64,000 nucleotides of DNA from a virus (lineage: Duplodnaviria > Caudoviricetes): IMG/VR virus record IMGVR_UViG_3300026488_000027, positions 2,131 to 66,130 of that record, one strand, 5' to 3'. Under the pieces are notes generated by a model, which ran no database searches, was not told where the DNA came from, and saw only the letters and a program-made list of their open reading frames with translations. Below are positions 5,536 to 25,209 of the stretch, in pieces. The position numbers and the translations under genes were made by a program. Position 1 is the stretch's first letter. Each line of letters starts with the position of its first letter.

Positions 5536-7341
5536 TTAACATTGAACTGAAGAAACTGTTGAAATACCATTTTCTTTTCTAACAGATATAATGCAATCAA
5601 ACCTATCAGCAAATTCTGGAGAATGATCAATTACAAAAACTTGATTTTTTGTTGCAAGTTCACTAAGTAGTTGAAATACTTTATTTTTTCTTTCAAGATC
5701 AAGATTTCTAAGCGGTTCATCAAAGAAAAAGACACCTATATTCTTTCCTATAACATTTACCGCAAGATCATGCAAGGTCAAAGCAAGAGCTATTCTGGCA
5801 ACCTGCTTTTCTCCCGAAGATAAATTCTTAAATGAAAACTTATTTCTTCGCCTCTTGAAAGAAAATTCTATCTTTGTATCATCTATGAAAACTTCAACGG
5901 TATAGTCAACACCAAGGTATTTTAAATAATGATTCATTCTATCTGCAATAAGAGACATTATATTGTGAACTAACTTCCTCTTTAATTCAGGAAAACCATC
6001 TTTCCAAAACTGATAAATTTGTAGTTGTTTCTCAAAATCTGCTTTTGCTTCGTTCAGACTGCTTATCTTAGCAAGAACTGCATTTAGCTTTTCCTTTCTT
6101 TCTTCTTCAAGTTTACGATAAGGATTTTCTTCTGAAGTGATTGTAACTATTCTTTCAGACAAATCCTTTATTTTAGCTCGCAACAAAGAAATTTCATCCT
6201 TTATTCTTTCCTGTTTTAATTTAAGTCTAAGTTTTTCGTGCTCAATGCTGGTAACCTTTTCTACAATGAGCTTCAACTGTGCTATTGATGATTTGATCTT
6301 ATCTCTTTCATCTATTAATTTCTCCATTTCTTCTGATAATTTTTCCATCTCATTAGCAATTTCAGCACGCCTTTCTTTCAATTCAGAAGCAAGTTCTTGA
6401 TTTTTTAGATTAGAACCGCACAGAGGACATCTCTTTTTCTTATTTACAAACTTTAAATGTTCACCATACTTATGATAATCTGAATTAAGAACCTCATACT
6501 GAGCTTTTAATTCTTCAAGTTTTTTATTCACTTTATCAAGATTTCTTTCATGAACACTTATTCTGTATTCAACAGTTGCAACATCCATATCTGCCAATTC
6601 TTTTTCAAGCTTTTGCATCTTTTGCTTAAGTGTTTCAGCTTCTTCCCTCAGTTTATCTATCTTATCAAATAAACTTCTCTTTTCCTTTTCAATGTTAGCT
6701 ATAACGGCCTTTCTTTCATGTTCCCACTCAACTATCTTTTCAGCATAGCTCTTTTCAAGCTCTTTGGCTCTTCCTACAAATTGTGCTATTTTCACTTCAA
6801 CATCTCTAATGTTAGATTCTATTGTTTTAATCTTACCTGAAACTCTCTTTAAACATCTGTCAAACAATGACAAATTAAACAATGTTGCAAGGAAATTCAG
6901 TCTCTGTGAAGGAGACATATCAAAGATAGAATTCCAATCTGATCCAACAAACACACAAGCAAAAAAGGTTTTTACATCACAACCAATAAATCTATTGATT
7001 ATTTCTTGTCTCTGTGTTTTAGTCAAGTTTTCAGATGCACCGCTCACAAACAAATCTGATACAGTTCTTTTTACTTCAAATGGTTTGTCTCTTTCAAGAA
7101 AGAGATGAATTTCATAATCATCTTCACCTAATCTTATACATTCAGCAGAAGTTAATCCAGATGGAGAACGACCAAACAAACCCACTGCAACAGCTTCCAG
7201 CAATGAAGTCTTTCCTGATCCTATACTACCACCAGCATCAAAGTTTTCACCTTTTACTAAAAACAATCCTTTGGTCTTTGGAATATCTATTTCAGCATCT
7301 CCAAAAGACTTGAAGTTTTTTACTTTCAACTTTCTAACCAT
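5536..7341 (-). CDS. sbcC: SbcC/Rad50-like ATPase (gp46-like)
   Basis: Walker A GSGKTS, zinc hook CPLCG within coiled coil, LSSGEK signature, FFDEP. Confidence 0.95.
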   Translation of the reverse strand: MVRKLKVKNFKSFGDAEIDIPKTKGLFLVKGENFDAGGSIGSGKTSLLEAVAVGLFGRSPSGLTSAECIRLGEDDYEIHLFLERDKPFEVKRTVSDLFVSGASENLTKTQRQEIINRFIGCDVKTFFACVFVGSDWNSIFDMSPSQRLNFLATLFNLSLFDRCLKRVSGKIKTIESNIRDVEVKIAQFVGRAKELEKSYAEKIVEWEHERKAVIANIEKEKRSLFDKIDKLREEAETLKQKMQKLEKELADMDVATVEYRISVHERNLDKVNKKLEELKAQYEVLNSDYHKYGEHLKFVNKKKRCPLCGSNLKNQELASELKERRAEIANEMEKLSEEMEKLIDERDKIKSSIAQLKLIVEKVTSIEHEKLRLKLKQERIKDEISLLRAKIKDLSERIVTITSEENPYRKLEEERKEKLNAVLAKISSLNEAKADFEKQLQIYQFWKDGFPELKRKLVHNIMSLIADRMNHYLKYLGVDYTVEVFIDDTKIEFSFKRRRNKFSFKNLSSGEKQVARIALALTLHDLAVNVIGKNIGVFFFDEPLRNLDLERKNKVFQLLSELATKNQVFVIDHSPEFADRFDCIISVRKENGISTVSSVQC

Positions 7342-7344
7342 GCC

Positions 7345-8388
7345 TTATCTCCTGCAAACTCTAATCAATTCAAGACCAACTGAAATAATTTCATCTTTGT
7401 TTTCTGGTTTTTTAGAAGCTACATATTCTTGTAACATTTGTTCAAGATCAAATAATCTGTTTACTTCAAGAACCGATGATGCTTCATCAAATTCTATTTC
7501 CTCATCAATAAACAGTTTGTCAACATTCTTTATTTTGTCTCTAACAATTTCTTCAACATAAGAAGCACTTAATCCTTTTGGAATATTAATCATCAAATTA
7601 ACTGGATTCTGAGGAAACAAATCAGAAATTTCTGTTATAGTGTTAACAAGCTTGTTTCTTGTATTAACAATTCGTCTTCTAATGGTGATATAAACAGGCA
7701 ATTCCGGAAGTCTGTCAATAAAATCAATCTTTTTTACTTTCCCATTATTGAACAACAAAATTCCATGGAATAATCTTTCTGATTCAAAGAAAGAATCTCT
7801 AAAATCTCGCTGAAAAACACTTCCAACATGGAAATACTGATCATTGTGAGAAGAAAATTGATGAATGTGTCCAGCAAAAGCAAATCTAACATTATTAACA
7901 TTCAAAATATCAATGACATTGCTTTCATCAGAATAAAAATTTCTTGAAAATGGCAAAAGTTGGTTATGACAAAAAACAATTGAATTTTCTTTGTTCAAAG
8001 TAAGCTCATTTAAAACTTTTCTAAATTCAGTATAATCTCTACGATATGCAATGAAGATAAGATTTGAACTTCTGGTCTCTATTACTTCTCTATCAGTAAC
8101 TCTGACCGTTATTCTGTTAAGAAATGGTGCTGTAATTGAATCATGAGAAATATCATGATTTCCAAGAATGAAAACCTTTTCTGGCACATTCAAGTTGAAA
8201 ACAAATTCGTCTACAAGTTCATACAAAACATTAGGAATTCTATCTTTACTTTCAAACAAATCTCCAAGAAATACAAACAACTGAGGTTTTAATTCATTCA
8301 CTACTTTCACAATTTCATTCAAAACAAGTTTACAACGATCAAGGTAGCTCTCATGTAAGTGAAGATCTCCTACTATGGCTATCTTCAT
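7345..8388 (-). CDS. sbcD: SbcD/Mre11-like nuclease (gp47-like)
   Basis: GDLH, LGDLF, GNHD, GHIH metallophosphoesterase motifs adjacent to sbcC. Confidence 0.93.
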   Translation of the reverse strand: MKIAIVGDLHLHESYLDRCKLVLNEIVKVVNELKPQLFVFLGDLFESKDRIPNVLYELVDEFVFNLNVPEKVFILGNHDISHDSITAPFLNRITVRVTDREVIETRSSNLIFIAYRRDYTEFRKVLNELTLNKENSIVFCHNQLLPFSRNFYSDESNVIDILNVNNVRFAFAGHIHQFSSHNDQYFHVGSVFQRDFRDSFFESERLFHGILLFNNGKVKKIDFIDRLPELPVYITIRRRIVNTRNKLVNTITEISDLFPQNPVNLMINIPKGLSASYVEEIVRDKIKNVDKLFIDEEIEFDEASSVLEVNRLFDLEQMLQEYVASKKPENKDEIISVGLELIRVCRR

Positions 8389-8393
8389 ACTTT

Positions 8394-9395
8394 CTACTCC
8401 CACAAAATGAATGAACTTGGACGATTAGTTTTTGATTCTTCAATTATATCATTCCAAACCTTTTCAACTTCTTTCCTCAAATCATTTATCTTTCCAAGCT
8501 CTATCACTTTTTCAGCAAGACCACTTGGACCAAGTCCCTTTACATCATTCCAAACCCACCAAGCACCAGACTTAGAAATCAAACCACAATCTGAGAGAAA
8601 CTTTAGGCAAGATCCAACATCATCTATACCACTATCAAAGTAAATTGAAAATGATCCAGATTTAAATGGTGCAGCAAGTCTGTTCTTCTTTATTGTGAAT
8701 GTTATGTCTACACCAATAGGAAATTCCTTGTTCTTTATCTTCTTCTTGATTATGCCATCTTTCTTAACATAAATATCAACATGTATTGCATGTCTTATTC
8801 CTCTACCACCAGAATAGGTTTCCTTTCTACCATAAACTCCTATACTTTCTCTCACCTGTGAGATAACAAACAGAATCGCATTCTTTTTCTTTAAGACGCT
8901 CATGATTCTTTTGGCTGTTTCACTCATCTTCTTTGCTACTTCAGCTCCATAAGAAGAATCTCCTATATCAGCTTTCAGTCTGTCCTCAGTAAGTAAAGCA
9001 TCAAGACTATCAACAACATAAAACAAGAAATCTTCTTCCTTCAGATTTTTAAGTCGTGTTATAAAATCTCCAAAAACATCTTCAAATGAAGAACCCGTGA
9101 TAAGCTCAAAACCATCATTCTCCATTACTTTTTCATACATGGCTGGATTAAGTTGAGCAAGAAAACTATCAAGAAAACCACCTTCTACATCATTATAAAC
9201 TATTTGAGGATTCAATCCTTTCTTAATGGCATAATTCAATGCATGAAACATTCCTTGCATTGCAAGAAAAGATTTTCCACTTCCCTCTTCTCCGTAAATG
9301 TGGTAAAATTTTCCAGGAACATATCCAACATCATACTTGTTAGTTATTGCAAGATTTAGCAATGTTGAACCTGTTGTAAAACCATCAAGTGTCAT
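8394..9395 (-). CDS. recA: RecA/UvsX recombinase
   Basis: TGSTLLNLA, GEEGSGKS, VVDSLDAL, SQVRE, GGRG, KKNRLAAPFK, KSGAWW. Confidence 0.95.
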   Translation of the reverse strand: MTLDGFTTGSTLLNLAITNKYDVGYVPGKFYHIYGEEGSGKSFLAMQGMFHALNYAIKKGLNPQIVYNDVEGGFLDSFLAQLNPAMYEKVMENDGFELITGSSFEDVFGDFITRLKNLKEEDFLFYVVDSLDALLTEDRLKADIGDSSYGAEVAKKMSETAKRIMSVLKKKNAILFVISQVRESIGVYGRKETYSGGRGIRHAIHVDIYVKKDGIIKKKIKNKEFPIGVDITFTIKKNRLAAPFKSGSFSIYFDSGIDDVGSCLKFLSDCGLISKSGAWWVWNDVKGLGPSGLAEKVIELGKINDLRKEVEKVWNDIIEESKTNRPSSFILWE

Positions 9396-9667
9396 TATTC
9401 ATCACCTCCACTCTTCAGCAGAACAATTCTAAATGCACGCAAAGCAATAGAAAGCCACAAAGCACTTCCAAATGACACGGAAGGAATCTTCTCAAAAACA
9501 GAGTGTAGTGCATAGAATCCACACCAAATAAGACCTGCATCCAGAACAATTTCCACAAGAACCGCAATAAAAGTTACAAAGAAAATAGCAAAGAATAAAG
9601 TTCTACTTTCTCCATAAACCTTCTTCAACTTTTCTATAAGATCCTTCAGTTTAAAGAAGCTCATCAT
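9395..9667 (-). CDS. Small membrane protein
   Basis: Two hydrophobic segments. Confidence 0.6.
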   Translation of the reverse strand: MMSFFKLKDLIEKLKKVYGESRTLFFAIFFVTFIAVLVEIVLDAGLIWCGFYALHSVFEKIPSVSFGSALWLSIALRAFRIVLLKSGGDE

Positions 9668-10445
9668 CTTCCTCTACATCAAGATTGTTTATTTCTTCCT
9701 TAAGTTCTTCAAGATCATTTATATTTACAACTTCATCAGAAACATCAATGTAACCAAAAAGATAAGTTTTCAATTCTTCATCATCAGGATACTGAAGAAG
9801 CGAAGATATTGGTTTGATTTCATTTGCAAATTCTTCTGGAACAGCACTTTCTTTTGTAGAAATTCTTACTCCAGTATATTTTGGATAACCATTTTCACCA
9901 ATTTCTCTAACAAAGAAAACATCTCTACCAGTTACAGGATGGAATATATCAATCAACTCTCCAGTTTCAGGATCTTCAGTCTGTGCAAGTATTTCCTCAA
10001 ACAAAGTATAAGGCAAAAGTCCAAGTTTTAATCCTTCTGCTTCACGCATTGCATCACTTCTATCCCACACCCAAGCAAGAATAACCTTGCTTGGCTTGTA
10101 AGCAGACTTCAAAACTTCGTCAGATACCTTCTTTCTTTCGCTACAAATAACACATGGTTTACCAAGCATCTTCTGCTTACACAAGAACATCTTTCTTTCA
10201 TCTCCTATGCCACGATGAAGCCAAAGAAGCCATGCAACTCCTACAAGGGAAAACTTAGGTGGAAGAATTTCTGGATTTTCCTTTGCTGGAGAAACTCCTG
10301 GAACAATCCTTATTCTGTTCTTTCCATCCTTTGGACGCCATACCTGAATATCAGGGGGAAGAAAAGTGTAAATTCCTGAAGACTTCAATACATTCTTGAT
10401 TGTCTTCAGATCGTTCTTCTTTAGTCCTTCATAATCCCAGCTCAT
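9651..10445 (-). CDS. gp32-like single-stranded DNA-binding protein
   Basis: GKNRIRIVP, His plus C..CVIC zinc ligands, HPVTGRD, acidic C-terminal tail; lies next to recA. Confidence 0.85.
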   Translation of the reverse strand: MSWDYEGLKKNDLKTIKNVLKSSGIYTFLPPDIQVWRPKDGKNRIRIVPGVSPAKENPEILPPKFSLVGVAWLLWLHRGIGDERKMFLCKQKMLGKPCVICSERKKVSDEVLKSAYKPSKVILAWVWDRSDAMREAEGLKLGLLPYTLFEEILAQTEDPETGELIDIFHPVTGRDVFFVREIGENGYPKYTGVRISTKESAVPEEFANEIKPISSLLQYPDDEELKTYLFGYIDVSDEVVNINDLEELKEEINNLDVEEDDELL

Positions 10446-10478
10446 CTAAAACCTCCTTAAAAGTTATTCTCACTTCAC

Positions 10479-10506
10479 AATATAAGCTCATCTTCAAATT
10501 TGTCAA
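10479..10506 (-). promoter_or_regulatory. Sigma70-type promoter upstream of SSB
   Basis: TTGACA-N16-TATATT on the minus strand. Confidence 0.6.
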
Positions 10507-10730
10507 GAGGAATTTTCACTTTTTTCCTGTTTCACCACAGTAACTTCTTCATGTTCACCCATTTCAGAAAGATTATGCATCATTCCCTTAAACTTTCCTC
10601 TTTCCATTCCCCATGAAAATCCATACCCTATCCCATAAAACAAAACACTAAGAGAAACAGAAACAGTAAAAACAACAGCAACATACAACAAAAGAGCTGA
10701 CACTATTTGCCACAAAGTAAAGTTAAACAT
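10503..10730 (-). CDS. Small membrane protein
   Basis: GGAGG RBS; long N-terminal hydrophobic helix. Confidence 0.6.
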   Translation of the reverse strand: MFNFTLWQIVSALLLYVAVVFTVSVSLSVLFYGIGYGFSWGMERGKFKGMMHNLSEMGEHEEVTVVKQEKSENSS

Positions 10731-10828
10731 GTTCTACCTCCAACAAAAGGATTTTGATCCAAAGAAAGGAATCCTTTGGATGGATAAACTTTTGAACATC
10801 CACATTAATATATGTGGACAAGAATCTT

Positions 10829-11293
10829 CTATTCATCATTTGACTCCCAGTAATCCATGGATTCTGTTGGCCACTTCTCAAGAATCTTTTTCATTTTATC
10901 TACTGCATTGACTTCTATTCCAGATGCTGCCATTATTCTAATTATGTTGCTAATCATTTCTCTTCTGTGTTCAAAAAGCATTTTTATTCTCTTCAGTTTA
11001 TCAATTTCCTTTTTCAATTCAAGAAGTTTTTGATATTCTGCAACAAACTGCTCATTTCTCTTGATTGAATTTTCAATTGACTTTTCAGTTATTTTGATTC
11101 CGTTCTGAAGAGCCTGTTCACGAATCTGCTTATCCAATTCAGCCACAAGCTTTTCAAGTTTCAACTTCTGAATGCCATACTGATACTCCAACTCAGGCAG
11201 ATTACGAGTAAAATATTCAAGAGCAGGAAGATGATTTTCACATGCTTCCCATATTGAATCTGAATCAAGCTTCATAAAATCTTCCAACCTCAT
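10829..11293 (-). CDS. UvsY-like recombination mediator
   Basis: Helical protein with KITEKSIENSI...FEHRREMI pattern; upstream of SSB and RecA. Confidence 0.65.
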   Translation of the reverse strand: MRLEDFMKLDSDSIWEACENHLPALEYFTRNLPELEYQYGIQKLKLEKLVAELDKQIREQALQNGIKITEKSIENSIKRNEQFVAEYQKLLELKKEIDKLKRIKMLFEHRREMISNIIRIMAASGIEVNAVDKMKKILEKWPTESMDYWESNDE

Positions 11294-11322
11294 TCTCAAC
11301 CTCCCTACAAAGTCTAACCTTT

Positions 11323-11351
11323 AGTATAGACCAAAATGGTCATTTTGTCAA
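11323..11351 (-). promoter_or_regulatory. Sigma70-type promoter
   Basis: TTGACA-N17-TATACT on the minus strand, intergenic. Confidence 0.75.
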
Positions 11352-11359
11352 GAGAAACT

Positions 11360-11971
11360 TTAATAATTCTTGCCGAGTCGTTCCAACTCATGTTGCATCC
11401 AAAACTTCTGCATTGTAAAGTAAAAATCTTCATAGGTCTTGTTAAAGCAAAAATAAAAGACATTTCCAGGTCTTTCAAATCTTGCATAACGCAAATCAGA
11501 TTTGAAGATTGGATAAATAACAACTGACTTTACACCAGCAAGATTTGTATAATTGACATCAGTAAGTGTAATTTCAAGATTACTTTCAGGTAATGTTATC
11601 TTCTTCCCATCAAAATAATCACCACACTCAAAGTAAAGCAAAAATCTATCACTGTTCTTTAGATAATACAACTTCCGCAAGAATCCATCAAAATACAGCT
11701 TGTATCTAAAATCAACTATTTCCAATACATTTTCAAGAAGCAATGGAACAACACCATCAAATGATGAATATTTCTCACATAACTCCTTAACCTTAGAAAT
11801 GTATTTCCTTTTGTCCCATGCTTGACCACTTTTCTTGTATGTAGCAATCGCTTCATATAGAATTTTGTTATGGATGATCTTTCCATAATTCATGTTTCTA
11901 AAGAAGAACAACTTCGCATCATCATCCACCTCGACGACAAACTTTGATATTCTAATACTACAAACATTCAT
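11360..11971 (-). CDS. Hypothetical protein
   Basis: About 200-aa ORF with GGAGG RBS before the ATG at 11971. Confidence 0.65.
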   Translation of the reverse strand: MNVCSIRISKFVVEVDDDAKLFFFRNMNYGKIIHNKILYEAIATYKKSGQAWDKRKYISKVKELCEKYSSFDGVVPLLLENVLEIVDFRYKLYFDGFLRKLYYLKNSDRFLLYFECGDYFDGKKITLPESNLEITLTDVNYTNLAGVKSVVIYPIFKSDLRYARFERPGNVFYFCFNKTYEDFYFTMQKFWMQHELERLGKNY

Positions 11972-12056
11972 TTTGACCTCCTTCGCCACAGTTTAGCATG
12001 TATTTCTAATATACCCCAGACAGCAAGTTGTCAAGAAGAAAATTTGGCCGTCAGTT

Positions 12057-12167
12057 AATAACTCTAACTAAGTAACTCGAGAAATAACCCGAAAAATAAC
12101 TCAAACCAAATAACTCGATAAATAACTCGAGAAATAAATCGAAAAGATAACTCGATAAATAACTCGA
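12057..12167. repeat. Iteron-like tandem repeats, about 9 copies of AAATAACTCGA at about 12-bp period
   Basis: Units at 12057, 12071, 12082, 12094, 12108, 12120, 12132, 12145 and 12157, followed by an AT-only run. Confidence 0.85.
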
Positions 12168-12540
12168 TTGAATAATATATTTATATTATGTGGTCTGAGA
12201 AAAGAAAAGTGATTTGAAAGAAGAAATCTTTCTTGAGTAACTATACTATCTTAGTTAAGAATAGTCTATTTAAAAAATCAATCATTTTCTTCTTTTCTCC
12301 AAGAAAGAATTAAAGACTTTGATATTCATGATTTCACTCAGATCAGGTTCAGGAAAGATCTTTGGAATGGAAGATCTTTAGTTCAACAGTGAAAAGAAGA
12401 TTCTTTAAGATTCCTGTTTCAAAATTTGGTCAGGTCTTTGGTTTATCATGAGATTATCATCTCATTCTATATTGCAAAACCGTGTGTAGTGGAGTTAGGC
12501 TTTTCTAACAAATGAAATGGATGTAAAAATCTTCAGAAAT

Positions 12541-12612
12541 CGTCTCTGACGCATTTTTTAATTCTGGGTAATGGTTTTATACCTGTAGGCAATTTTGCGT
12601 GCGTCAGAGACG
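12541..12612. repeat. 13-bp perfect inverted repeat CGTCTCTGACGCA / TGCGTCAGAGACG
   Basis: Arms at 12541-12553 and 12600-12612 in non-coding DNA. Confidence 0.8.
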
Positions 12613-12723
12613 CTCAGAATGGATCTCAGGGGTAAAATTTTAGAATGTCCTGACCAAAATTTGACTTGACTTTTTCGTGAATGGATGTATATTGAAGTTA
12701 GGAATATTTCTGTGAGGGAAGGG

Positions 12724-13614
12724 ATGAATGAATTTGGTATAGTCAGAAAGATGATAATGGACTCCCTTGAAGGAATTACTTTTGAGGAATACAAGAACCT
12801 TTGTGGTTTCGGATCATTGATTCTTGAAAACCTTTCTTTGTATGATAAGGATGGATTGGAAAACTTCAATGAACTAATTTATGAGTTGCATGATGCCAAG
12901 AAGGTTTCATTGACACAACTTAGATATCGTGCAATGCGTCAAAATGTAAACATTACTGTGGCAAAAAATAGACAATATTATGCAATTTACTTTTTTCTTG
13001 TTGACTTTTTGACACACTATTTTAGAAAATGGAAAACCATCTATTTAACTGACAGAACCATTTTCTATCTCAGGAAAGCATACAGAAGTGAAGTTGTAGA
13101 TAATTTGTTAAAAGAGCCATTTTTTGATTATTATGAAACTGAAATTAGAATCTTCAGAAGAGCTTTTTACAGTCTTGCATTGTATCATGTATTGCTATAC
13201 AGAATTCTTTTTGTAAAGAATCCTCTGAATAAAGAAATGTTTTGGACTGCACACAGATACATTATGAGAAAGATTTTGTTTTTTGTTTTCACACAGATAG
13301 CTTTAATTTGTGAAACGGAAGAGGAAATGGAAAAGTTTGCATTTTATATTGAAGAGAATCCACACAAGGTGTTCAGGTTTTATTGTGAAGAATTAAATAT
13401 AGCTCCTGAAGATGTTTTTGAAGGTCTTAACATTGTTTCGTTCACAGATTTTGGTGCCGGAATAAACTCTACAACTGTCAATTTTATCCTTGACAAATGC
13501 CAAGATTTAGACTATCTAAGAAAAGAGAACTTGACAAGAAAGGATGCTGAGGAGTTGATAAAAAAACTTTTTAAGAAGGAATATCACCAAGTTTTGGTTG
13601 GGAGTAAATTATGA
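12724..13614 (+). CDS. Hypothetical protein heading the replication operon
   Basis: Long ORF (track start 12685); likely ATG at 12724 after GAGGGAAGGG and a TTGACT-N16-TATATT promoter. Confidence 0.75.
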   Translation: MNEFGIVRKMIMDSLEGITFEEYKNLCGFGSLILENLSLYDKDGLENFNELIYELHDAKKVSLTQLRYRAMRQNVNITVAKNRQYYAIYFFLVDFLTHYFRKWKTIYLTDRTIFYLRKAYRSEVVDNLLKEPFFDYYETEIRIFRRAFYSLALYHVLLYRILFVKNPLNKEMFWTAHRYIMRKILFFVFTQIALICETEEEMEKFAFYIEENPHKVFRFYCEELNIAPEDVFEGLNIVSFTDFGAGINSTTVNFILDKCQDLDYLRKENLTRKDAEELIKKLFKKEYHQVLVGSKL

Positions 13615-19766: not shown

Positions 19767-20960
19767 ATGCTACATAATCAAAAAATGAAAGTTTTTGTGG
19801 TTGATGCTGAGGGAAAACCACTTCTACCTACCACACCTGCAAGAGCAAGAATACTGCTGAAAAAAGGAAAAGCAAAAGTTTACAGAATGATACCATTCAC
19901 TATCCAACTAAACAGAGTGGTTAAAAATCCTGTTGGTGAATTTACTGCTGCAGTTGATGATGGTTCAAAATATCTTGGTATAGCTGTTAAGGGGAAAAAT
20001 GAAATTGTTTTCACTGCTAATGTAAAACTTAGACAAGATGTAAGCAGAAAAGTTAAGCAGAGAGCCATGTATCGCAGGAATAGAAGGAGGAGACTTAGGC
20101 ATAGACCAGCTCGGTTTATGAATAGAAAGAGAAGCAAAGACTGGTTGCCACCATCAATCAGATATAGAAAGGAAGTTGTTTTGAGGGTTCTAAATGATTT
20201 GAGTAAGTTTTTAAATATCACAAAAGTTATAATTGAGCAAGTTAAATTTGATGTTTCTTCCCTTGTGGCTGGTAGGAGGTTGAAAGGCAAGGAATATCAA
20301 CGAAAAAGATATGAAGGCAGAAACTTCAGAGAAAAAGTCTTGATAAGAGACAATTATACTTGCCAAATTTGTGGTAATAAGAAAAATCTTGAAGTTCATC
20401 ACATAATCCCAAGAAGTAAAGGAGGAACAAATGTTGTAGAAAATGGAATTACATTGTGTAAGAATTGTCATAAAGCTGTTCATGAATGTAAAATAAAACT
20501 GACCGCTAACATACTATCAACGAAGCATGCTTCTGTTGCTCAACAAGGCAAATGGTGGTTATTTAGAATATTAAAAGAACAATTTAAAAATGTTGAAATA
20601 ACGTTTGGTTATATCACCAAGAAGAATAGAGAGAAACTTGGACTTCCAAAGGATCACTATACTGATGCTTGTGCAATATTAGAATGTAACAATATCATTT
20701 CGCCTGTTTATTTAATTATTCCACGCAGAAGAAGACCAGAAATAAATAATTCAACAAAGAAACATAATGAATACAAAGGATTTAGACATTTTGATATTGT
20801 AGTTGCTTATCACAAAACTAAGGGTAAGATAATTGGTTGTGTAAGAAGTCTAAAGAAAAGTGGTTTGGCTTTGAGAACGAAATTTTCAGATAACTTTGTT
20901 GTTGGATATACAAAAAGTAAACTACTTTGGAGACCAAAGGGGTTAGTTTATGTGGTATAA
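19767..20960 (+). CDS. iscB: RNA-guided endonuclease IscB (RRXRR, HNH + split RuvC)
   Basis: PLLP (PLMP domain), RuvC-I VDDGSK, Arg-rich bridge helix RRNRRRR, RuvC-II IIEQ, HNH CQICG..HHIIPRSKGG..N..LCKNCH, RuvC-III HYTDA. Confidence 0.95.
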   Translation: MLHNQKMKVFVVDAEGKPLLPTTPARARILLKKGKAKVYRMIPFTIQLNRVVKNPVGEFTAAVDDGSKYLGIAVKGKNEIVFTANVKLRQDVSRKVKQRAMYRRNRRRRLRHRPARFMNRKRSKDWLPPSIRYRKEVVLRVLNDLSKFLNITKVIIEQVKFDVSSLVAGRRLKGKEYQRKRYEGRNFREKVLIRDNYTCQICGNKKNLEVHHIIPRSKGGTNVVENGITLCKNCHKAVHECKIKLTANILSTKHASVAQQGKWWLFRILKEQFKNVEITFGYITKKNREKLGLPKDHYTDACAILECNNIISPVYLIIPRRRRPEINNSTKKHNEYKGFRHFDIVVAYHKTKGKIIGCVRSLKKSGLALRTKFSDNFVVGYTKSKLLWRPKGLVYVV

Positions 20961-21022: not shown

Positions 21023-21952
21023 ATGGAAAAGAGCAAGTTTGAAATCATAAGAGAACTTATCAACTTCTATAATGAAAATCTATACATACCTTCTGCAAAA
21101 ATGATAGCTTCCATGTATAACATTGGATCAAAGAAAGCATATTGGATTCATGGTTATCTTACTGCAATGTTAAATGATGACAGGTATATTCGTGAAATTG
21201 AAAATGACACAGATAGAAAAACAGAATTTATAGAAGTTGTCTTTGCTGACATGCACATACCTTATATAGATGAAAAAGCTTTCTTTACAGCAATAGATTT
21301 TTGTAAAAATCTGCCAAGAGTTGATAAGTTTGTATTACTTGGAGATGAAATTGATTTTTACCAGATTTCCTTTTGGAATAGAAATCCTAAAAAGATGTCA
21401 ATAGAAGAAGAAATTGAAATGTGTAAAGACTATCTCAAACTTCTAAAGAAAGAATTTAGTGATGTTGACTTCTACATGATAGAATCAAACCATCATCTTA
21501 GACTTCAGAAGTATATTTTTTCAAATGCTCCTGAATTAGCAGGACTAAGACAACTTATGTTTGAAAACTTACTTGACTTGAATTCACTTGGTATAAAATA
21601 CATAAGCAATGAAAAGTTAATTTCAATTACAGGAAAACCATTTAGAATTGGTGGTTTGTATCACATTCATGGGCATGAAGTTAAGACTGGTGGAATAAAT
21701 GTAGCAAGAAATGTATATCTGAAAACGCAACAAAATGTAATTATGGGTCATTTCCATAGAACACAGGAATATATTCATAGAACTTTGGATGGAAAAGTAT
21801 ATGGTTGTTGGTCAGTTGGATGTCTTTGTCAGCTTACTGCTGAATATGCACCAGTAAATCAATGGAATCATGGGTTTGCTGTTGTATATCATTTTGATGA
21901 TGAATATTTTGAGGTTAAGAATTACAAGATCATAAATGGGAAGGTGTTATGA
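21023..21952 (+). CDS. Calcineurin-like metallophosphoesterase
   Basis: ADMHIP, LGDEID, SNHH, HGHE, GHFHR, GCLC. Confidence 0.88.
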   Translation: MEKSKFEIIRELINFYNENLYIPSAKMIASMYNIGSKKAYWIHGYLTAMLNDDRYIREIENDTDRKTEFIEVVFADMHIPYIDEKAFFTAIDFCKNLPRVDKFVLLGDEIDFYQISFWNRNPKKMSIEEEIEMCKDYLKLLKKEFSDVDFYMIESNHHLRLQKYIFSNAPELAGLRQLMFENLLDLNSLGIKYISNEKLISITGKPFRIGGLYHIHGHEVKTGGINVARNVYLKTQQNVIMGHFHRTQEYIHRTLDGKVYGCWSVGCLCQLTAEYAPVNQWNHGFAVVYHFDDEYFEVKNYKIINGKVL

Positions 21953-22134
21953 AGAGGAAAAGCAGATATTGGTTAATTACTGGTGAAATATTCAGAAAAG
22001 GAAAGAAGTCTTATTTTATTAATGTGGTAAATCTAAAAAGTGGTAATATAGTGGAATGGAAAGAATTTTCAAACTATGGAAGCTGGAAACAACAACAAGT
22101 CTATCTACGAAACAAATATAGAACTGCTAATTAG
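21949..22134 (+). CDS. Hypothetical protein
   Basis: 61-aa ORF coupled (ATGA) to the upstream gene. Confidence 0.55.
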   Translation: MKRKSRYWLITGEIFRKGKKSYFINVVNLKSGNIVEWKEFSNYGSWKQQQVYLRNKYRTAN

Positions 22135-22864
22135 CAAATTCAAAAATTGCTGTCTGGCCAGCATAAACATAGTCTAATTCTTTAACTAATGGATTTAGTT
22201 TTATGTGTTTTCTATTTACTGGGATTACTAAAAGTGCATAGCTTCCCCAACATACAAATTGAAGTCTTTGTCCTTGATGCACAGGTTGATTTTCATCTAC
22301 AAAGTCAAGTATAGAATTTACTTCCCTATCAGCAATTGAGCAAATAACACAATCAAAGTTTTTTATTGGATTGTATAATTCAATAACTTTTCTTTCATTT
22401 TTAAATGTGAAGTGTAAATTTTCTGGCTTTGGTTTTTTATTTGTGATTATATCATATTCTGCTGGAATCATTGAAAGGTTTTCAGTAACAGTTGGTTCTA
22501 ATTCTTTTATTGAACGGACAATTCCTTTTATTGGACTTCTACCGAGATGAACACTAAACGCAGTTAAAAAGATAGCACATGCATAGCACTCGCATTTCAT
22601 TTCTGAATCTAAAACCTCGTTTATCGTGTATGATTTTCCTTTCACATTGAGAACATCTTCGTCTGGATTATATCTTCCTATATGAACAACAATTCCATCA
22701 AATGGAGCAAAGATATATTTACTAATTTGCCATTTTGTTCTTAAAGGCATTCTATTGAAGTATAGTTCAACAAATTCTCTTGGTGTTGCTTTTGATACCT
22801 TCTTGAAGTCTTCTGTTTGTTGCCATTCTTCCATTGTGTGCGATTTAAATAATCTAATCATCAT
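22127..22864 (-). CDS. Phosphatidylserine decarboxylase-fold (pyruvoyl) proenzyme
   Basis: FAPFDGIV, IFLTAFSVHLGRSPIKG, KNERKV, GQRLQFVCWGSYALL (G|S self-cleavage), VYAGQT. Confidence 0.85.
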   Translation of the reverse strand: MMIRLFKSHTMEEWQQTEDFKKVSKATPREFVELYFNRMPLRTKWQISKYIFAPFDGIVVHIGRYNPDEDVLNVKGKSYTINEVLDSEMKCECYACAIFLTAFSVHLGRSPIKGIVRSIKELEPTVTENLSMIPAEYDIITNKKPKPENLHFTFKNERKVIELYNPIKNFDCVICSIADREVNSILDFVDENQPVHQGQRLQFVCWGSYALLVIPVNRKHIKLNPLVKELDYVYAGQTAIFEFAN

Positions 22865-23901
22865 TTACCACCATACTCCTTGTAGTATGATTGATATTTT
22901 CTGTCTGCATAATTAAGATGAGCAAAACAACAACTTAGAGCCGCACCTTGTTTCATAAATTGCCCAATTTCAAACATGACTAAATCAAAACCATTATCGA
23001 AAGCTATCTGTTCCAGCGTTTCTATCTTTTTCATCTCAATATTAAATTCTTCTGTATCTGGTTCAAAAATATCTATGTAAGTTCCTGCAAAGATAGTATA
23101 TCCTATTACAAGATTATTCATAATGCAAAATTCAATCACATCCTTGTCTTCAACAGGTATTATTTCAGCATATTTTTCAACTTCTTTAAGTGCTTTCTTG
23201 TCAACATAAGGAGTAGCAACCATTACTTTATCTTCTGATAAAACGCAACAAGCTTCATCAAAATGATATACAAAATCAGTAGTTTTTCCTAACTTTATTA
23301 TCTTAGCATCAAATTTTTCTGCAATCCAATCTAAAGCTTCTTCACATGTTCTTTCTCCATATCCAGCTAAATAAATGTTATCTTTGAGATAGCGACAATC
23401 TGGTTCTCCTTCAAATGTCCATTCTGGATCAGGAATTCTGTAAGTCTTATATCCCATTTCAGCTAAGAAGTTTTCAGCTATGTCAGATTCAGGATCTCTA
23501 CCTTCAGCAGCGAAATTACTAATTATGCATGTTGGTTCTTCCACATGTGGTAGATATAGAAATTGATTTACCCAGACCAAATCTTGCAAAAGTGGGTTTG
23601 GTGGTAAAGTTAATATCAAAGCATATTGTGAAATGACTTGGTAAATTTCAAACCACTGATTAAAAAGTTTATCTACTGAAAATTTGTTTCCAATTAGTTC
23701 TTCATCCTCTTCCATAAATACATTATTATCAACAAATACTTTTTGTATGATAGGAGGAGACATAACAAGAACTGTCACATCAAGATCTGATGGTGTTCTT
23801 AGCCTTTTACTTACATCAACATCTGATAGAGATTTTTCTGTGCAAAAAGGACATTTTTCTGTTGTATATACAGCATTACATTTATCACAGATATACATCA
23901 T
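22861..23901 (-). CDS. Amidinotransferase/DDAH (pentein)-superfamily enzyme with N-terminal zinc ribbon
   Basis: LQDLVWVN, FEGEPD, GYGERT, VYHFDE (His-Asp), FMKQGAALSCC (nucleophile Cys); CDKC..CPFC at the N-terminus. Confidence 0.85.
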   Translation of the reverse strand: MMYICDKCNAVYTTEKCPFCTEKSLSDVDVSKRLRTPSDLDVTVLVMSPPIIQKVFVDNNVFMEEDEELIGNKFSVDKLFNQWFEIYQVISQYALILTLPPNPLLQDLVWVNQFLYLPHVEEPTCIISNFAAEGRDPESDIAENFLAEMGYKTYRIPDPEWTFEGEPDCRYLKDNIYLAGYGERTCEEALDWIAEKFDAKIIKLGKTTDFVYHFDEACCVLSEDKVMVATPYVDKKALKEVEKYAEIIPVEDKDVIEFCIMNNLVIGYTIFAGTYIDIFEPDTEEFNIEMKKIETLEQIAFDNGFDLVMFEIGQFMKQGAALSCCFAHLNYADRKYQSYYKEYGGK

Positions 23902-23925
23902 TTTATTTCACCTCATCTTTAGTAA

Positions 23926-23975
23926 GATTTGTGGTCTGTCACAAATCGTGATACGGAACAGACCACAGTGTTTTT
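23926..23975. promoter_or_regulatory. Structured intergenic element (10-bp hairpin with alternative 8-bp hairpin)
   Basis: TGTGGTCTGT 23930-39 pairs with ACAGACCACA 23958-67; GATTTGTG 23926-33 pairs with CACAAATC 23940-47. Confidence 0.6.
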
Positions 23976-23977
23976 GA

Positions 23978-23995
23978 TTTAAAATGTTTAGTTAC
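23978..23995 (+). repeat. 18-bp exact copy of 19464-19481 (TTTAAAATGTTTAGTTAC)
   Basis: Direct comparison of the two loci. Confidence 0.85.
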
Positions 23996-24396
23996 TTTTT
24001 AGCTTTTTCAAACATCTTGCATGTATAAATAAGCTCATCAAGAAGATTTATCCATGCTTTTCTTTCTTCAGGAGTAAATTCTCCTTCAACAACATCCAGA
24101 TGCTTTTCTGCAAGTATATCAAGTTTTCTTAGGAACAAATTAATTGCAAGTTTTGTGTTTTCGTCTTCAACACCAATATCGTCTAAAAGTTTCTCAAATT
24201 CCTTGTGGAATTCTTCTTCAGAAACCGTTTCATCAGTAGCCAGTCTCTTTAGCGTTTCAAAAGAAGCTACAAGCTGATCTGCATATTCGGGATGTTTTGA
24301 TAAAATTCCAATAAGAATTCCAGACAGTGCAAAAGAAACAAGATCAGGATCAAGTTTTTTTATGACATTCTTTGTTTTGTTCCAATATTTACCCAT
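23992..24396 (-). CDS. Hypothetical protein (134 aa)
   Basis: AAGGAGG RBS; helical, acidic. Confidence 0.75.
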   Translation of the reverse strand: MGKYWNKTKNVIKKLDPDLVSFALSGILIGILSKHPEYADQLVASFETLKRLATDETVSEEEFHKEFEKLLDDIGVEDENTKLAINLFLRKLDILAEKHLDVVEGEFTPEERKAWINLLDELIYTCKMFEKAKK

Positions 24397-24400
24397 AGCC

Positions 24401-24434
24401 TTCCTCCTTTCAAACAGTTTTGAATTTTAAAACA
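24401..24434 (-). repeat. 34-bp inverted repeat, right copy
   Basis: Minus strand TGTTTTAAAATTCAAAACTGTTTGAAAGGAGGAA. Confidence 0.85.
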
Positions 24435-25209
24435 AAATAAATGTTGCTGTTAGTTTATCCCAAACTTCTTTGGGATTTCCAATATTGTAAAATTTCATAG
24501 TTAACTGTGGCTCATACAATCTATACTTAAGTTCATTTCCATCTTTGTAAATTATAAGATTTATAGCATGATAAACCACTTTGTTTTTATCTTCATCTAT
24601 GAAAATTCCCCATAATATTCCGCATCCTAAGTTACCCAATTTGTGTTCAGAAAGAAACGATTTGAACATTAATGCATAATCATCACAGTCTGTTCGTTCA
24701 GGAATGTATTTGTGTTTTTCAGTGTGAAACATTGAAATTATCTTTTTGATTATTGAAAAATCCTTTGGAACATAATATTTACTGTCAGCATACTTTATGT
24801 CGGTATGTTGATCAACAAAGGGTAGTTCTTTTACAAAATTGAGAATCACTTTGTGATCCACTTCTTCAAGATCATCTTTAAATAATTCATAAAAATCGTC
24901 TGGAAGATGTTGACACAAGTTTTTAAAGTTAAAGTGTATTTCACTTGCATATTTGAAGAAGTTGATAAGTTTATTTAATTCAATGTTTTCATCTATTCCT
25001 ACCTGGTTAAGCATGTCTAACAAAAGATTGGCAGATGGATATCTATTTCCTATCAATTCACATACATCAAGTATTGTTGTTAGTATTTTATCCTTACCAT
25101 CATTAGCTTTCAAAATATTTGAGAAAGTAGTAGCTTTTTTTAATATTGTTATTAGGTTGTCATCTGGTTGTATAAGAAATGGTTCTAAAACTTGTTTAAG
25201 AGTTTGCAT
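24427..25209 (-). CDS. Papain/transglutaminase-like cysteine protease domain protein (MOA agglutinin C-terminal-like)
   Basis: TDCDDYA (Cys), YHAINL (His), LYEPQ (Glu). Confidence 0.7.
   Translation of the reverse strand: MQTLKQVLEPFLIQPDDNLITILKKATTFSNILKANDGKDKILTTILDVCELIGNRYPSANLLLDMLNQVGIDENIELNKLINFFKYASEIHFNFKNLCQHLPDDFYELFKDDLEEVDHKVILNFVKELPFVDQHTDIKYADSKYYVPKDFSIIKKIISMFHTEKHKYIPERTDCDDYALMFKSFLSEHKLGNLGCGILWGIFIDEDKNKVVYHAINLIIYKDGNELKYRLYEPQLTMKFYNIGNPKEVWDKLTATFILF

Follow-up and report, generated by a model that had tools for sequence, protein, structure and literature searches.

The locus studied here raised the question of what a pentein, i.e. an enzyme of the guanidino-group-modifying fold, and a pyruvoyl-dependent decarboxylase proenzyme of the phosphatidylserine decarboxylase (PSD) family do together in a tailed phage that encodes them as a coupled pair. 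The window analysed is a stretch of 64,000 nucleotides of viral DNA (IMG/VR record IMGVR_UViG_3300026488_000027, positions 2,131 to 66,130), and both genes are located on its minus strand. The gene of the pentein, a putative arginine dihydrolase of ArgZ/AgrE type with 346 amino acids, occupies 22861..23901, and the PSD-like gene, coding for 245 amino acids, 22127..22864. Their junction reads ...GGT GGT AAA TGA TGA TT...; the ATG of the PSD-like gene shares four bases (ATGA, 22861..22864) with the TGA of the pentein gene, and an AAGGAG is positioned 13 nt 5' of this ATG. The virion operon (in the order terminase, portal, protease, major head protein, a 2051-aa protein and tail fibres) is encoded on the same strand, and the minus-strand pair faces the end of a plus-strand replication block. 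The original prediction of two translationally coupled genes with a 4-bp overlap, co-oriented with the tail genes, hence holds, coordinates included.

Upstream of the pentein gene, a gap of 90 nt contains a perfect inverted repeat of 10 bp (TGTGGTCTGT / ACAGACCACA) around a loop of 18 nt (23930..23967, minus strand), after which the ribosome-binding site GAGGTGA is found. Folded as RNA, the repeat reached -21 kcal/mol with a z of -3.25, and none of 200 shuffled sequences folded equally well. The repeat lacks a following T-run and was not among the hits of the consensus terminator scan; it may mark the boundary of a transcript or act as a regulatory hairpin. Scanning of the region 21700-24600 gave site numbers no higher than expected: 12 promoter-like (13.4 expected) and one terminator-like (1.3 expected).

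The Pfam search of the window pentein returned no matches, the agmatine deiminase family PF04371 thus not being matched either. The protein was matched by phrog_12759 (E 2e-35) and, with 70.2 bits, by the NCBIfam model Arg_dihydro (NF052232), the curated cut-off of which (450 bits) was not reached. Since all family scores were far under the curated cut-offs, the phage pentein appears to form a subfamily that is related to, and separate from, the ArgZ/AgrE-type NF052232, and its substrate may differ from that of ArgZ/AgrE. The AlphaFold model (pLDDT 88.9) and the alignment revealed a five-fold beta/alpha propeller, a His-x-Asp motif and a C-terminal catalytic Cys, which places the protein in the pentein superfamily. 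Foldseek returned 129 PDB matches at E<=0.001; leading among the matches listed were ArgZ, AgrE, DDAH, amidinotransferases, arginine deiminase, AstB and agmatine deiminase. The top matches were all ArgZ/AgrE, with the N-domain of ArgZ at E 2e-20 and a target-normalised TM of 0.86. The family profile search ranked AgrE (E 2e-36) and ArgZ (1e-35) best; DDAH, structurally the next-best clade (Foldseek E 1e-13, target-normalised TM 0.73-0.79), gave a much weaker profile match (9e-5) and only weak matches to the NCBIfam DDAH models, and we know of no evident methylarginine source in phage infection. An amidinotransferase identity of the AGAT/StrB1 type was rejected: AGAT, StrB1, SxtG and HsvA were structural matches at Foldseek E 1e-10 to 1e-9 only, with target-normalised TM of 0.54-0.57 and rmsd of 5.7-8.2, and no amidinotransferase was found in the family profile search at E 0.001.

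Both profiles and model therefore suggest that the nearest relatives of the pentein are the cyanobacterial arginine dihydrolases ArgZ (Sll1336) and AgrE (Alr4995). In an alignment of 35 pentein sequences, N60, D107, N112, R135, E138, E164, R184, H213, D215 and C324 were invariant; these positions align with AgrE N22, D65, N71, R90, E93, E118, R139, H168, D170 and C264. The ArgZ/AgrE-type Cys264, His168, Asp170, Asn71, Arg90 and Arg139 are thereby kept as C324 (codon 22930-22932, minus strand), H213 (codon 23263-23265, minus strand), D215, N112, R135 and R184. We assume for C324, H213, D215 and N112 the roles of the catalytic and conserved residues of ArgZ/AgrE to which they align, and we take R135 and R184 to be the binders of the alpha-carboxylate, as in the structures of DDAH and ArgZ. 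The similarity extends to organisation, a dihydrolase being coupled to a second, product-using enzyme. Unlike ArgZ and AgrE, the phage pentein is a stand-alone protein of about 300-346 aa devoid of a fused C-terminal domain, it is paired with a separate pyruvoyl decarboxylase instead of an ornithine cyclodeaminase-type domain, and a zinc-ribbon-like element has been added in the lineage of the window. This element, C5-x2-C8...C17-x2-C20 at residues 5-20 (23842..23889, minus strand), is present in four of five close relatives, with the fifth (P0004) missing the first CxxC, and is missing in the more distant homologues of L006, DAC19 and NCTC12673; the Spt4 zinc ribbon matched it weakly (E 0.005).

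The partner protein was assigned to PF02666 with E 1.9e-23 and 83.6 bits (gathering threshold 22), residues 41-239 covering profile positions 13-196 of 198. Across an alignment of 35 PSD-like sequences G57, H106, G207 and S208 were invariant and D56 nearly so. The Asp-His-Ser self-processing triad and the Gly-Ser site near the C-terminus are thus kept, as in canonical Psd (EC 4.1.1.65), and cleavage at G207|S208 (codons 22241-22246, minus strand) is predicted to yield a beta chain of residues 1-207 and an alpha chain of 38 aa. Residues 12-206 of the structural model align to the beta chain of E. coli PSD up to residue 252 (Z 10.5), which is located just before the E. coli cleavage site. In canonical Psd the cleavage motif is LGST or GGST, unlike the WGS of the phage protein, which is moreover always accompanied by a pentein partner. 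None of the 13 NCBIfam PSD equivalog models was reached, the best score being 60.9 bits against cut-offs of 183-377 bits. The E. coli PSD structure paper reportedly describes a membrane-associating hydrophobic N-terminal region as the defining feature of canonical PSD; the phage protein has no hydrophobic or membrane segment by Kyte-Doolittle analysis (maximal 19-residue mean of 1.23, mean of -0.84 for the first 45 residues).

Structure comparison placed E. coli PSD (Z 10.5), PsiD from Psilocybe (10.0) and Ao-ADC1 from Aspergillus oryzae (9.2) within about 1.5 Z, i.e. lipid and amino-acid enzymes were level. PsiD is a PSD-fold decarboxylase with a free amino acid as its substrate, and it self-cleaves at Gly|Ser to the pyruvoyl group. 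Ao-ADC1 is likewise described as a free-amino-acid decarboxylase of PF02666, with Gly|Ser self-cleavage to a pyruvoyl group documented and PSD activity reported as lacking (PMC12904898). The fold is common to both fungal enzymes and the phage protein; the former differ in their size (440-480 aa against 245), in a long helical N-terminal region and in having no pentein partner. As to the features first read from the two sequences, the Asp/His/Cys motifs and the N-terminal zinc ribbon of the pentein, and the Asp, His and G|S site of an anchorless PSD-fold proenzyme, were all confirmed; the label "amidinotransferase-fold" proved loose, true amidinotransferases ranking far behind ArgZ or DDAH.

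Related loci were searched for with a 10-sequence alignment as a seed, and 78 non-duplicate viral and 51 bacterial loci were evaluated. Among the viral loci, the PSD-like gene was directly downstream of the pentein gene on the same strand in 58 of the 78, and in 41 of these 58 the two genes overlapped by one base. It followed after one to three inserted ORFs in eight further loci and was on the other strand in one; two loci were truncated, and nine had no PSD-like gene nearby. Six of these nine belonged to Fletchervirus, where the PSD-like gene is located elsewhere in the genome. The directly adjacent pair is carried by T4-like aquatic myoviruses, Bacteroides phages and relatives of the phage studied here; in Bacteroides phage DAC19, NCBIfam and tblastn identified the pentein as gene 243, immediately upstream of the PSD-like gene 244. 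In bacteria, both genes were adjacent, in either order, in 30 of 51 loci. Because of these adjacency counts, the pairing is well above chance and the two genes represent a conserved module, so that the expected co-occurrence in other neighbourhoods has been found. The proposed tie of the pair to the end of a virion operon was not conserved: other phages have the pair behind the gene of the major head protein, between those of portal and protease, within blocks of nucleotide metabolism or next to replication genes, and its closeness to tail genes is incidental. It should be added that some of the "bacterial" loci are metagenome bins and may hold phage DNA; L086, for instance, shares an identical gene with the viral locus L011.

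The surroundings of the pair were informative about its chemistry. Three cyanobacterial loci (L096, L101 and L115) have no PSD-like gene and carry a PLP-dependent Orn/Lys/Arg decarboxylase next to the pentein gene, i.e. a non-homologous replacement; two more flanking proteins matched Orn_Arg_deC_N. A gene of the agmatine deiminase family (PF04371, E 1e-18 to 1e-24) was found within or beside the pair at nine viral loci, of 80 including the window; an agmatine deiminase (E 1.5e-102) flanks one bacterial locus, and a glutamine-synthetase-like gene is likewise found at one. Among 77 flanking bacterial proteins, 14 MatE proteins and four ABC exporters agree with a small exported product, and eight penicillin-amidase-like proteins and three condensation domains point to a possible use of the amine in an acylated natural product of the cells. 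Neither CN_hydrolase nor spermidine synthase was found in the five full or near-full phage genomes carrying the pair, and the module is therefore self-contained. PF00478 (IMPDH/GMP-reductase), considered as a common nucleotide enzyme linking the pair to DNA modification, was dismissed, as it was detected in one of five records, that of DAC19, and not in NCTC12673, the contig of the window, G001 or G002.

Complex prediction for the pentein and the PSD-like protein, the second check proposed along with the neighbourhood search, was passed with a score of 0.82 (0.82, 0.85 and 0.81 in separate runs), the best of three controls scoring 0.01. Of 80 solved complexes, 58 reached the mark applied, as did two of 110 mismatched pairs; these counts hold only roughly, since the alignments were self-made. 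The runs shared at least 89% of contacts, with partner pLDDT of at least 86, and the predicted interface sets residues 41-48 of the PSD-like protein against the pentein strand 306-311.

We consider it somewhat more probable than the contrary that the pair is a physically associated, self-contained two-enzyme module that forms a diamine from L-arginine, most likely putrescine via ornithine. The pentein would act like ArgZ/AgrE: Cys324 would attack the carbon of the guanidino group, His213 and Asp215 would form the catalytic pair, and Asn112 would stand where ArgZ has Asn71; two rounds of hydrolysis would deliver ornithine, CO2 and two ammonia. The PSD-family proenzyme would self-cleave between Gly207 and Ser208 via the Asp56-His106-Ser208 triad, leaving an N-terminal pyruvoyl group on the 38-residue alpha chain; ornithine would react with this group through its alpha-amino function to a Schiff base, and decarboxylation would yield putrescine. 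Given the predicted binding of the two proteins, the intermediate could be passed directly from one to the other, similarly to AgrE, where the dihydrolase is fused to an ornithine-using domain. The phage would presumably benefit from a polyamine for DNA packaging or translation, and from the released ammonia. The core of the two-step arginine-to-polyamine route through ornithine or agmatine, as initially suggested, is thus supported by the ArgZ/AgrE kinship, the PLP decarboxylase replacement, the agmatine-deiminase neighbours and the predicted complex. Known routes to putrescine proceed via arginine decarboxylase and agmatinase, agmatine deiminase or ornithine decarboxylase. In a bolder version, which we offer tentatively and at less than even chances, an obligate heteromeric machine of pentein and PSD fold would channel arginine to putrescine by a route distinct from these; in unrelated phages it would raise polyamine at packaging or donate an amine for modification of DNA or capsid, and it would contain the first PSD-fold amino-acid decarboxylase outside fungi.

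The main rival, unlikely in our estimation, has the same product with the steps reversed: the PSD-like protein would be a pyruvoyl arginine decarboxylase producing agmatine, and the pentein would hydrolyse agmatine, or N-carbamoylputrescine supplied by the agmatine-deiminase-family neighbour, to putrescine. A PSD-family arginine decarboxylase has a precedent in Ao-ADC1 (PMC12904898), and the structures 9jf5 and 9jer matched the PSD-like model with Z 9.0-9.2 (10.5 for E. coli PSD). The agmatine-deiminase-family gene at nine viral loci speaks more for a route through agmatine than for one through ornithine, the strong agmatine deiminase beside one bacterial locus likewise counts in its favour, and the three-gene set would provide one enzyme per step; N-carbamoylputrescine amidohydrolase was found in none of the five phage genomes, and therefore the pentein would have to perform that step. 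This third gene is however missing from most loci (present in 9 of 80, window counted), and the arginines equivalent to R90 and R139 are invariant in 35 of 35 sequences, including the seven alignment members (nine loci) with an agmatine-deiminase-like gene. In the ArgZ/AgrE clade these arginines are taken to bind the carboxylate of the substrate, and agmatine has no carboxylate.

Two further readings abandon the free arginine-derived metabolite. In thymidine hypermodification, a serine or ornithine adduct on DNA gets decarboxylated, and decarboxylation of an O-serinyl adduct is chemically that of phosphatidylserine to phosphatidylethanolamine. The pair might correspondingly have a bound substrate, such as an amino acid attached to phage DNA, or else a virion protein or the head group of a lipid. 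The DAC19 pair is located among dUTPase-like, dCTP-deaminase-like and IMPDH/GMP-reductase-like genes, other phages have the pair within the head module, the pentein of the window lineage bears a zinc ribbon, and both genes adjoin replication genes in Fletchervirus, the DNA of which is reported to have deoxyinosine in place of deoxyguanosine (PMC13091555). We nevertheless regard a bound substrate as improbable, given that there is no constant tie to nucleotide-modifying genes (in the window, those related to nucleotides are limited to ThyX, a dUTPase/DCD-like protein and a radical-SAM activase), that the exporters and PLP amino-acid decarboxylases in bacterial contexts suit a free small molecule, and that the conserved pentein residues are those of free-arginine enzymes. 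Hardly credible, finally, are two unrelated auxiliary genes, an ordinary phosphatidylserine decarboxylase raising host phosphatidylethanolamine and a separate amidinotransferase, although GenBank names on Campylobacter phages say so, an ocean survey has viral psd as a lipid gene (PMC11360552), and the two genes are far apart in Fletchervirus. Such genes would not be expected to be so often adjacent in both viruses and bacteria, nor to pass complex prediction; the PSD-like scores far under the equivalog cut-offs, the missing membrane-binding segment, the merely distant structural matches of amidinotransferases and the PLP decarboxylases standing in for the PSD-like gene at some loci all argue against this reading.

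Returning to the arginine-to-putrescine module that we favour, its closest counterparts include the viral polyamine enzymes. For PBCV-1, arginine decarboxylase, agmatine deiminase, N-carbamoylputrescine amidohydrolase and homospermidine synthase have been described, as well as, for phages, pyruvoyl ornithine and arginine decarboxylases derived from speD (AdoMetDC) (PMC9992855). These systems likewise make polyamines from arginine or ornithine, pyruvoyl-dependent decarboxylases included; they differ in their folds, the described phage pyruvoyl enzymes being AdoMetDC-derived, and phosphatidylserine, dihydrolase, amidinotransferase, Campylobacter and Bacteroides do not occur in the main text of that systematic survey, where the pair goes unmentioned. 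In the literature the two genes were found mentioned separately, gene by gene, and no description of them as a pair was found. With regard to the candidate new phage pathway first proposed, both genes are already present, individually annotated, in sequenced isolates of Campylobacter Fletchervirus and of the Bacteroides phages DAC/SJC. Many phages and bacteria share this pair, which is conserved and as yet uncharacterised.

Phages depend on polyamines for the packaging of their DNA and for translation, and the polyamine genes of viruses are under active study. If the proposed function is correct, the pair would make putrescine from arginine by a compact route of two genes, whose folds had not been combined before. 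The "phosphatidylserine decarboxylase" and "amidinotransferase" genes of Campylobacter therapeutic-candidate phages, gut Bacteroides phages and many aquatic T4-like phages would be re-annotated, and ocean surveys counting viral psd as a lipid gene would be corrected (PMC11360552). Conserved gene clusters of Bacteroides, Xenorhabdus and actinomycetes, in which the pair is found together with exporters, would likewise be explained.

The window covers nearly all of its source record, a 66,130-base IMG/VR virus with an estimated completeness of 63%. The minus-strand virion operon runs through the large terminase, portal, protease, major head protein, a 2051-aa protein and tail-fibre genes to its last ORFs of 134, 346 and 245 aa. 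The latter two are a pentein gene (22861..23901, minus strand) and a gene for a PSD-family decarboxylase, hereafter PSD-like (22127..22864, minus strand), which overlap by ATGA, with AAGGAG upstream. Both genes lie where the original prediction had placed them, and all the features it described are there. Facing the pair, a replication block on the plus strand (helicase, primase, DNA polymerase, RRXRR-HNH endonuclease and metallophosphoesterase) comes to its end. Ahead of the pair, a gap of 90 nt folds into a stable hairpin (-21 kcal/mol, z -3.25). It corresponds to an inverted repeat 5' of the pentein gene (23930-23967, minus strand) whose 10-bp arms match perfectly around a loop of 18 nt; no T-tract follows. 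An ORF of 260 aa lies two genes upstream of the pair (24427-25209, minus strand), after a DUF4376 tail-fibre-type protein. Its residues 143-235 match Lectin_C_term and Agglutinin_C of Pfam (E 8e-7), and the protein may be an accessory in receptor binding.

The 346-aa protein had no Pfam match and matched phrog_12759. With its AlphaFold model (pLDDT 88.9), the top Foldseek match was to ArgZ/AgrE, which are cyanobacterial arginine dihydrolases, in their N-terminal domain (E 2e-20, target-normalised TM 0.86). Dimethylarginine dimethylaminohydrolase, DDAH, ranked second (E 1e-13), and only distant matches were obtained with true amidinotransferases, arginine deiminase and agmatine deiminase. Similarly, a 35-member pentein profile matched AgrE at E 2e-36 and ArgZ at 1e-35, and DDAH at 9e-5 only. 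In the ArgZ/AgrE clade, two conserved arginines hold the substrate carboxylate. Counted along the profile alignment, AgrE residues N22, D65, N71, R90, E93, E118, R139, H168, D170 and C264 correspond to N60, D107, N112, R135, E138, E164, R184, H213, D215 and C324 of the window protein, and all ten are invariant across the family; according to a PDB entry title, the N71S variant of ArgZ trapped a reaction intermediate. The family is nevertheless distinct: with the arginine dihydrolase model it reaches 70 bits, where the cut-off is 450. An exhaustive profile search among 1.84 billion returned 329 cluster representatives at E<=1e-30, and the N-terminal CxxC...CxxC motif was found only in close relatives of the window protein.

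The 245-aa protein matched Pfam PS_Dcarbxylase (E 1.9e-23) and contained no hydrophobic segment. Among 35 aligned relatives G57, H106, G207 and S208 were invariant and D56 nearly so; D56/H106/S208 and G207/S208 are the putative self-processing triad and Gly-Ser cleavage site of the PSD family. In the AlphaFold model (pLDDT 89.1), residues 12-206 aligned with the E. coli PSD beta chain, to residue 252 (Z 10.5). Two fungal PSD-family enzymes acting on free amino acids, the tryptophan decarboxylase PsiD (Z 10.0) and the Aspergillus oryzae arginine decarboxylase Ao-ADC1 (Z 9.2), fitted about as well. A review on Ao-ADC1 documents a pyruvoyl-dependent arginine decarboxylase within the PSD family that lacks PSD activity (PMC12904898). 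By NCBI standards an ordinary PSD was rejected, with 61 bits for the best equivalog model and a cut-off of 183. The nearest ESM Atlas clusters were of the PSD family, and 93-96% of their recorded members were viral.

The two genes form a conserved module. An IMG/VR scan yielded 79 pentein loci, one of them a duplicate. In 58 of the 78 counted, the PSD-like gene lay directly downstream on the same strand (41 with a one-base overlap); these loci are not all independent, since 80 penteins, that of the window included, form 31 groups at 80% identity. The PSD-like gene followed past one to three inserted ORFs in eight further loci and was on the opposite strand in one; two loci were cut off right after the pentein, and nine had no PSD-like gene, six of these from the Campylobacter phage genus Fletchervirus. 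GenBank phages carried the pentein in 46 records (39 Campylobacter, 6 Bacteroides, 1 Xanthomonas) and the PSD-like protein in 44 (38 Campylobacter, 6 Bacteroides). Genes 243 (pentein) and 244 (PSD-like) adjoin in Bacteroides phage DAC19; by record coordinates they are about 43 kb apart in Campylobacter phage NCTC12673, by replication genes. The pair comes after a gp23-like head gene in a T4-like lineage (49 loci), has a PhoH-like gene 3' of it in 36 loci, and lies between portal and prohead protease in L005, a relative of the window at 64% identity. Because its position differs among phages, the tie to the virion operon and tail genes proposed originally is incidental. In DAC19 (6253-12849 of locus L001), the pair is surrounded by genes for a dUTPase, a second dUTPase/dCTP-deaminase-like protein and an IMPDH/GMP-reductase-family protein, a set that could alter purine or pyrimidine pools.

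Complex prediction from the two family alignments gave 0.82 (runs 0.82, 0.85 and 0.81), and the best of three controls 0.01. In the calibration of the tool, this mark was attained by 58 of the 80 complexes with solved structures, against 2 of 110 mismatched pairs, counts that hold here only roughly because our own alignments were used. The runs shared at least 89% of contacts, with partner pLDDT of at least 86, and the predicted interface involved strand 306-311 and helices around 85-92 and 293-304 of the pentein, and residues 41-48, 113 and 194-196 of the PSD-like protein. To our knowledge no pentein-PSD complex has been solved, which makes it unlikely that the predictor merely reproduced a known structure. 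The prediction supports binding of the two proteins to each other rather than demonstrating it.

Among one-genome-per-species bacterial and archaeal assemblies, 51 pentein loci were found. A PSD-like gene was within 200 nt on the same strand in 30 (20 preceding the pentein, 10 following it), further off in three and absent from 18. A Pfam scan of 77 flanking proteins detected MatE (14), penicillin-amidase-like (8), ABC exporter (4), condensation domain (3), OKR_DC_1, a PLP-dependent Orn/Lys/Arg decarboxylase (3), Orn_Arg_deC_N (2), agmatine deiminase (1; E 1.5e-102) and glutamine-synthetase-like (1) proteins. Three cyanobacterial loci without a PSD-like gene have the PLP-dependent decarboxylase immediately 3' of the pentein. 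This is a non-homologous replacement, which points to decarboxylation of a basic amino acid as the job of the partner. Furthermore, Bacteroidota loci L097-L099, L107, L108, L111 and L125 share a conserved cluster of a penicillin-amidase-family protein (~650 aa), pentein, PSD-like protein and MatE exporter; the Xenorhabdus cluster has instead PSD-like protein, pentein and ABC exporter, and that of Prevotella MatE, pentein and condensation domain. All three look like small-molecule biosynthetic clusters.

Mobile elements repeatedly target the pair. ORFs inserted between the two genes include homing endonucleases, and in L005 (5088-7139, plus strand) a LAGLIDADG intein of ~341 aa, starting with Cys, ending ...SSN and followed by Ser, interrupts the pentein, its insertion point lying two residues ahead of the catalytic His. 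For several other members, 590-942 aa long, the profile matches fall into two to three separate stretches. Such repeated insertion is typically seen in genes under strong selection for function. DAC19_245 (9779-11299 of locus L001) and Hef85 of NCTC12673 (6728-8182 of locus L003), both annotated as Hef, homing-endonuclease-like, and each directly downstream of the PSD-like gene, share 38% identity over 280 aa; they are either a mobile element travelling with that gene or a further partner. Elsewhere in the window, the 883-aa large terminase (46310-48961, minus strand) matches terminase PHROGs at residues 38-173 and 547-831, and its residues ~170-549 match PHROGs of unknown function and an anaerobic ribonucleotide reductase PHROG; by these matches the middle stretch looks like an intein or other inserted element. 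The RRXRR and HNH gene between DNA polymerase and metallophosphoesterase (19767-20960, plus strand) is probably a free-standing homing endonuclease.

The most likely reading, which we favour with moderate confidence, is an associated arginine-to-diamine machine: the pentein would act as an arginine dihydrolase yielding ornithine, and the physically associated pyruvoyl enzyme would decarboxylate ornithine to putrescine. This association recalls AgrE, in which the dihydrolase is fused to an ornithine-using domain, and the originally proposed arginine-to-polyamine route gains support from independent comparative evidence. In the main rival reading, which we regard as rather unlikely, the order of steps is reversed: the PSD-like enzyme would convert arginine to agmatine and the pentein would hydrolyse the product, helped where present by an agmatine-deiminase-like gene. 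This third gene (PF04371, E 1e-18 to 1e-24) favours the agmatine order and occurs inside or beside the pair in nine viral loci (L011, L012, L025, L026, L027, L040, L055, L057 and L067; cluster c17), as a divergent gene of ~275-310 aa between the pair or just after it, with its closest cellular relatives in L086 and L087; the invariant ArgZ-type arginines, however, favour the ornithine order. Neither an N-carbamoylputrescine amidohydrolase-type gene nor a spermidine synthase gene was found in five pair-carrying phage genomes that are complete or nearly so, nor any further polyamine enzyme among the other genes of the window, so that the module appears self-contained.

Action on a bound substrate, e.g. 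modified DNA, seems improbable. Two contexts suggest it, namely Fletchervirus, the DNA of which is described as containing deoxyinosine in place of deoxyguanosine (PMC13091555), and the nucleotide-metabolism neighbourhood of the DAC19 pair, but no constant partner gene accompanies it. We give very little credence to the annotations as they stand, an ordinary PSD and an unrelated amidinotransferase. GenBank annotations of Campylobacter phages name the two genes individually, and an ocean survey places viral psd under phosphatidylethanolamine synthesis (PMC11360552); the amidinotransferase label, also used in the original prediction, gives way to ArgZ/AgrE as the nearest matches.

Our literature search for the pair returned only separate mentions of the two genes, and the main text of a systematic study on viral polyamine enzymes (PMC9992855) has no mention of phosphatidylserine, dihydrolase, amidinotransferase, Campylobacter or Bacteroides. 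The arginine-to-diamine module would plausibly benefit the phage by providing counter-ions for packaged DNA, translation support and ammonia release. The pair extends known kinds, namely viral polyamine genes, arginine dihydrolases and PSD-fold amino-acid decarboxylases, and is widespread, uncharacterised and directly testable.
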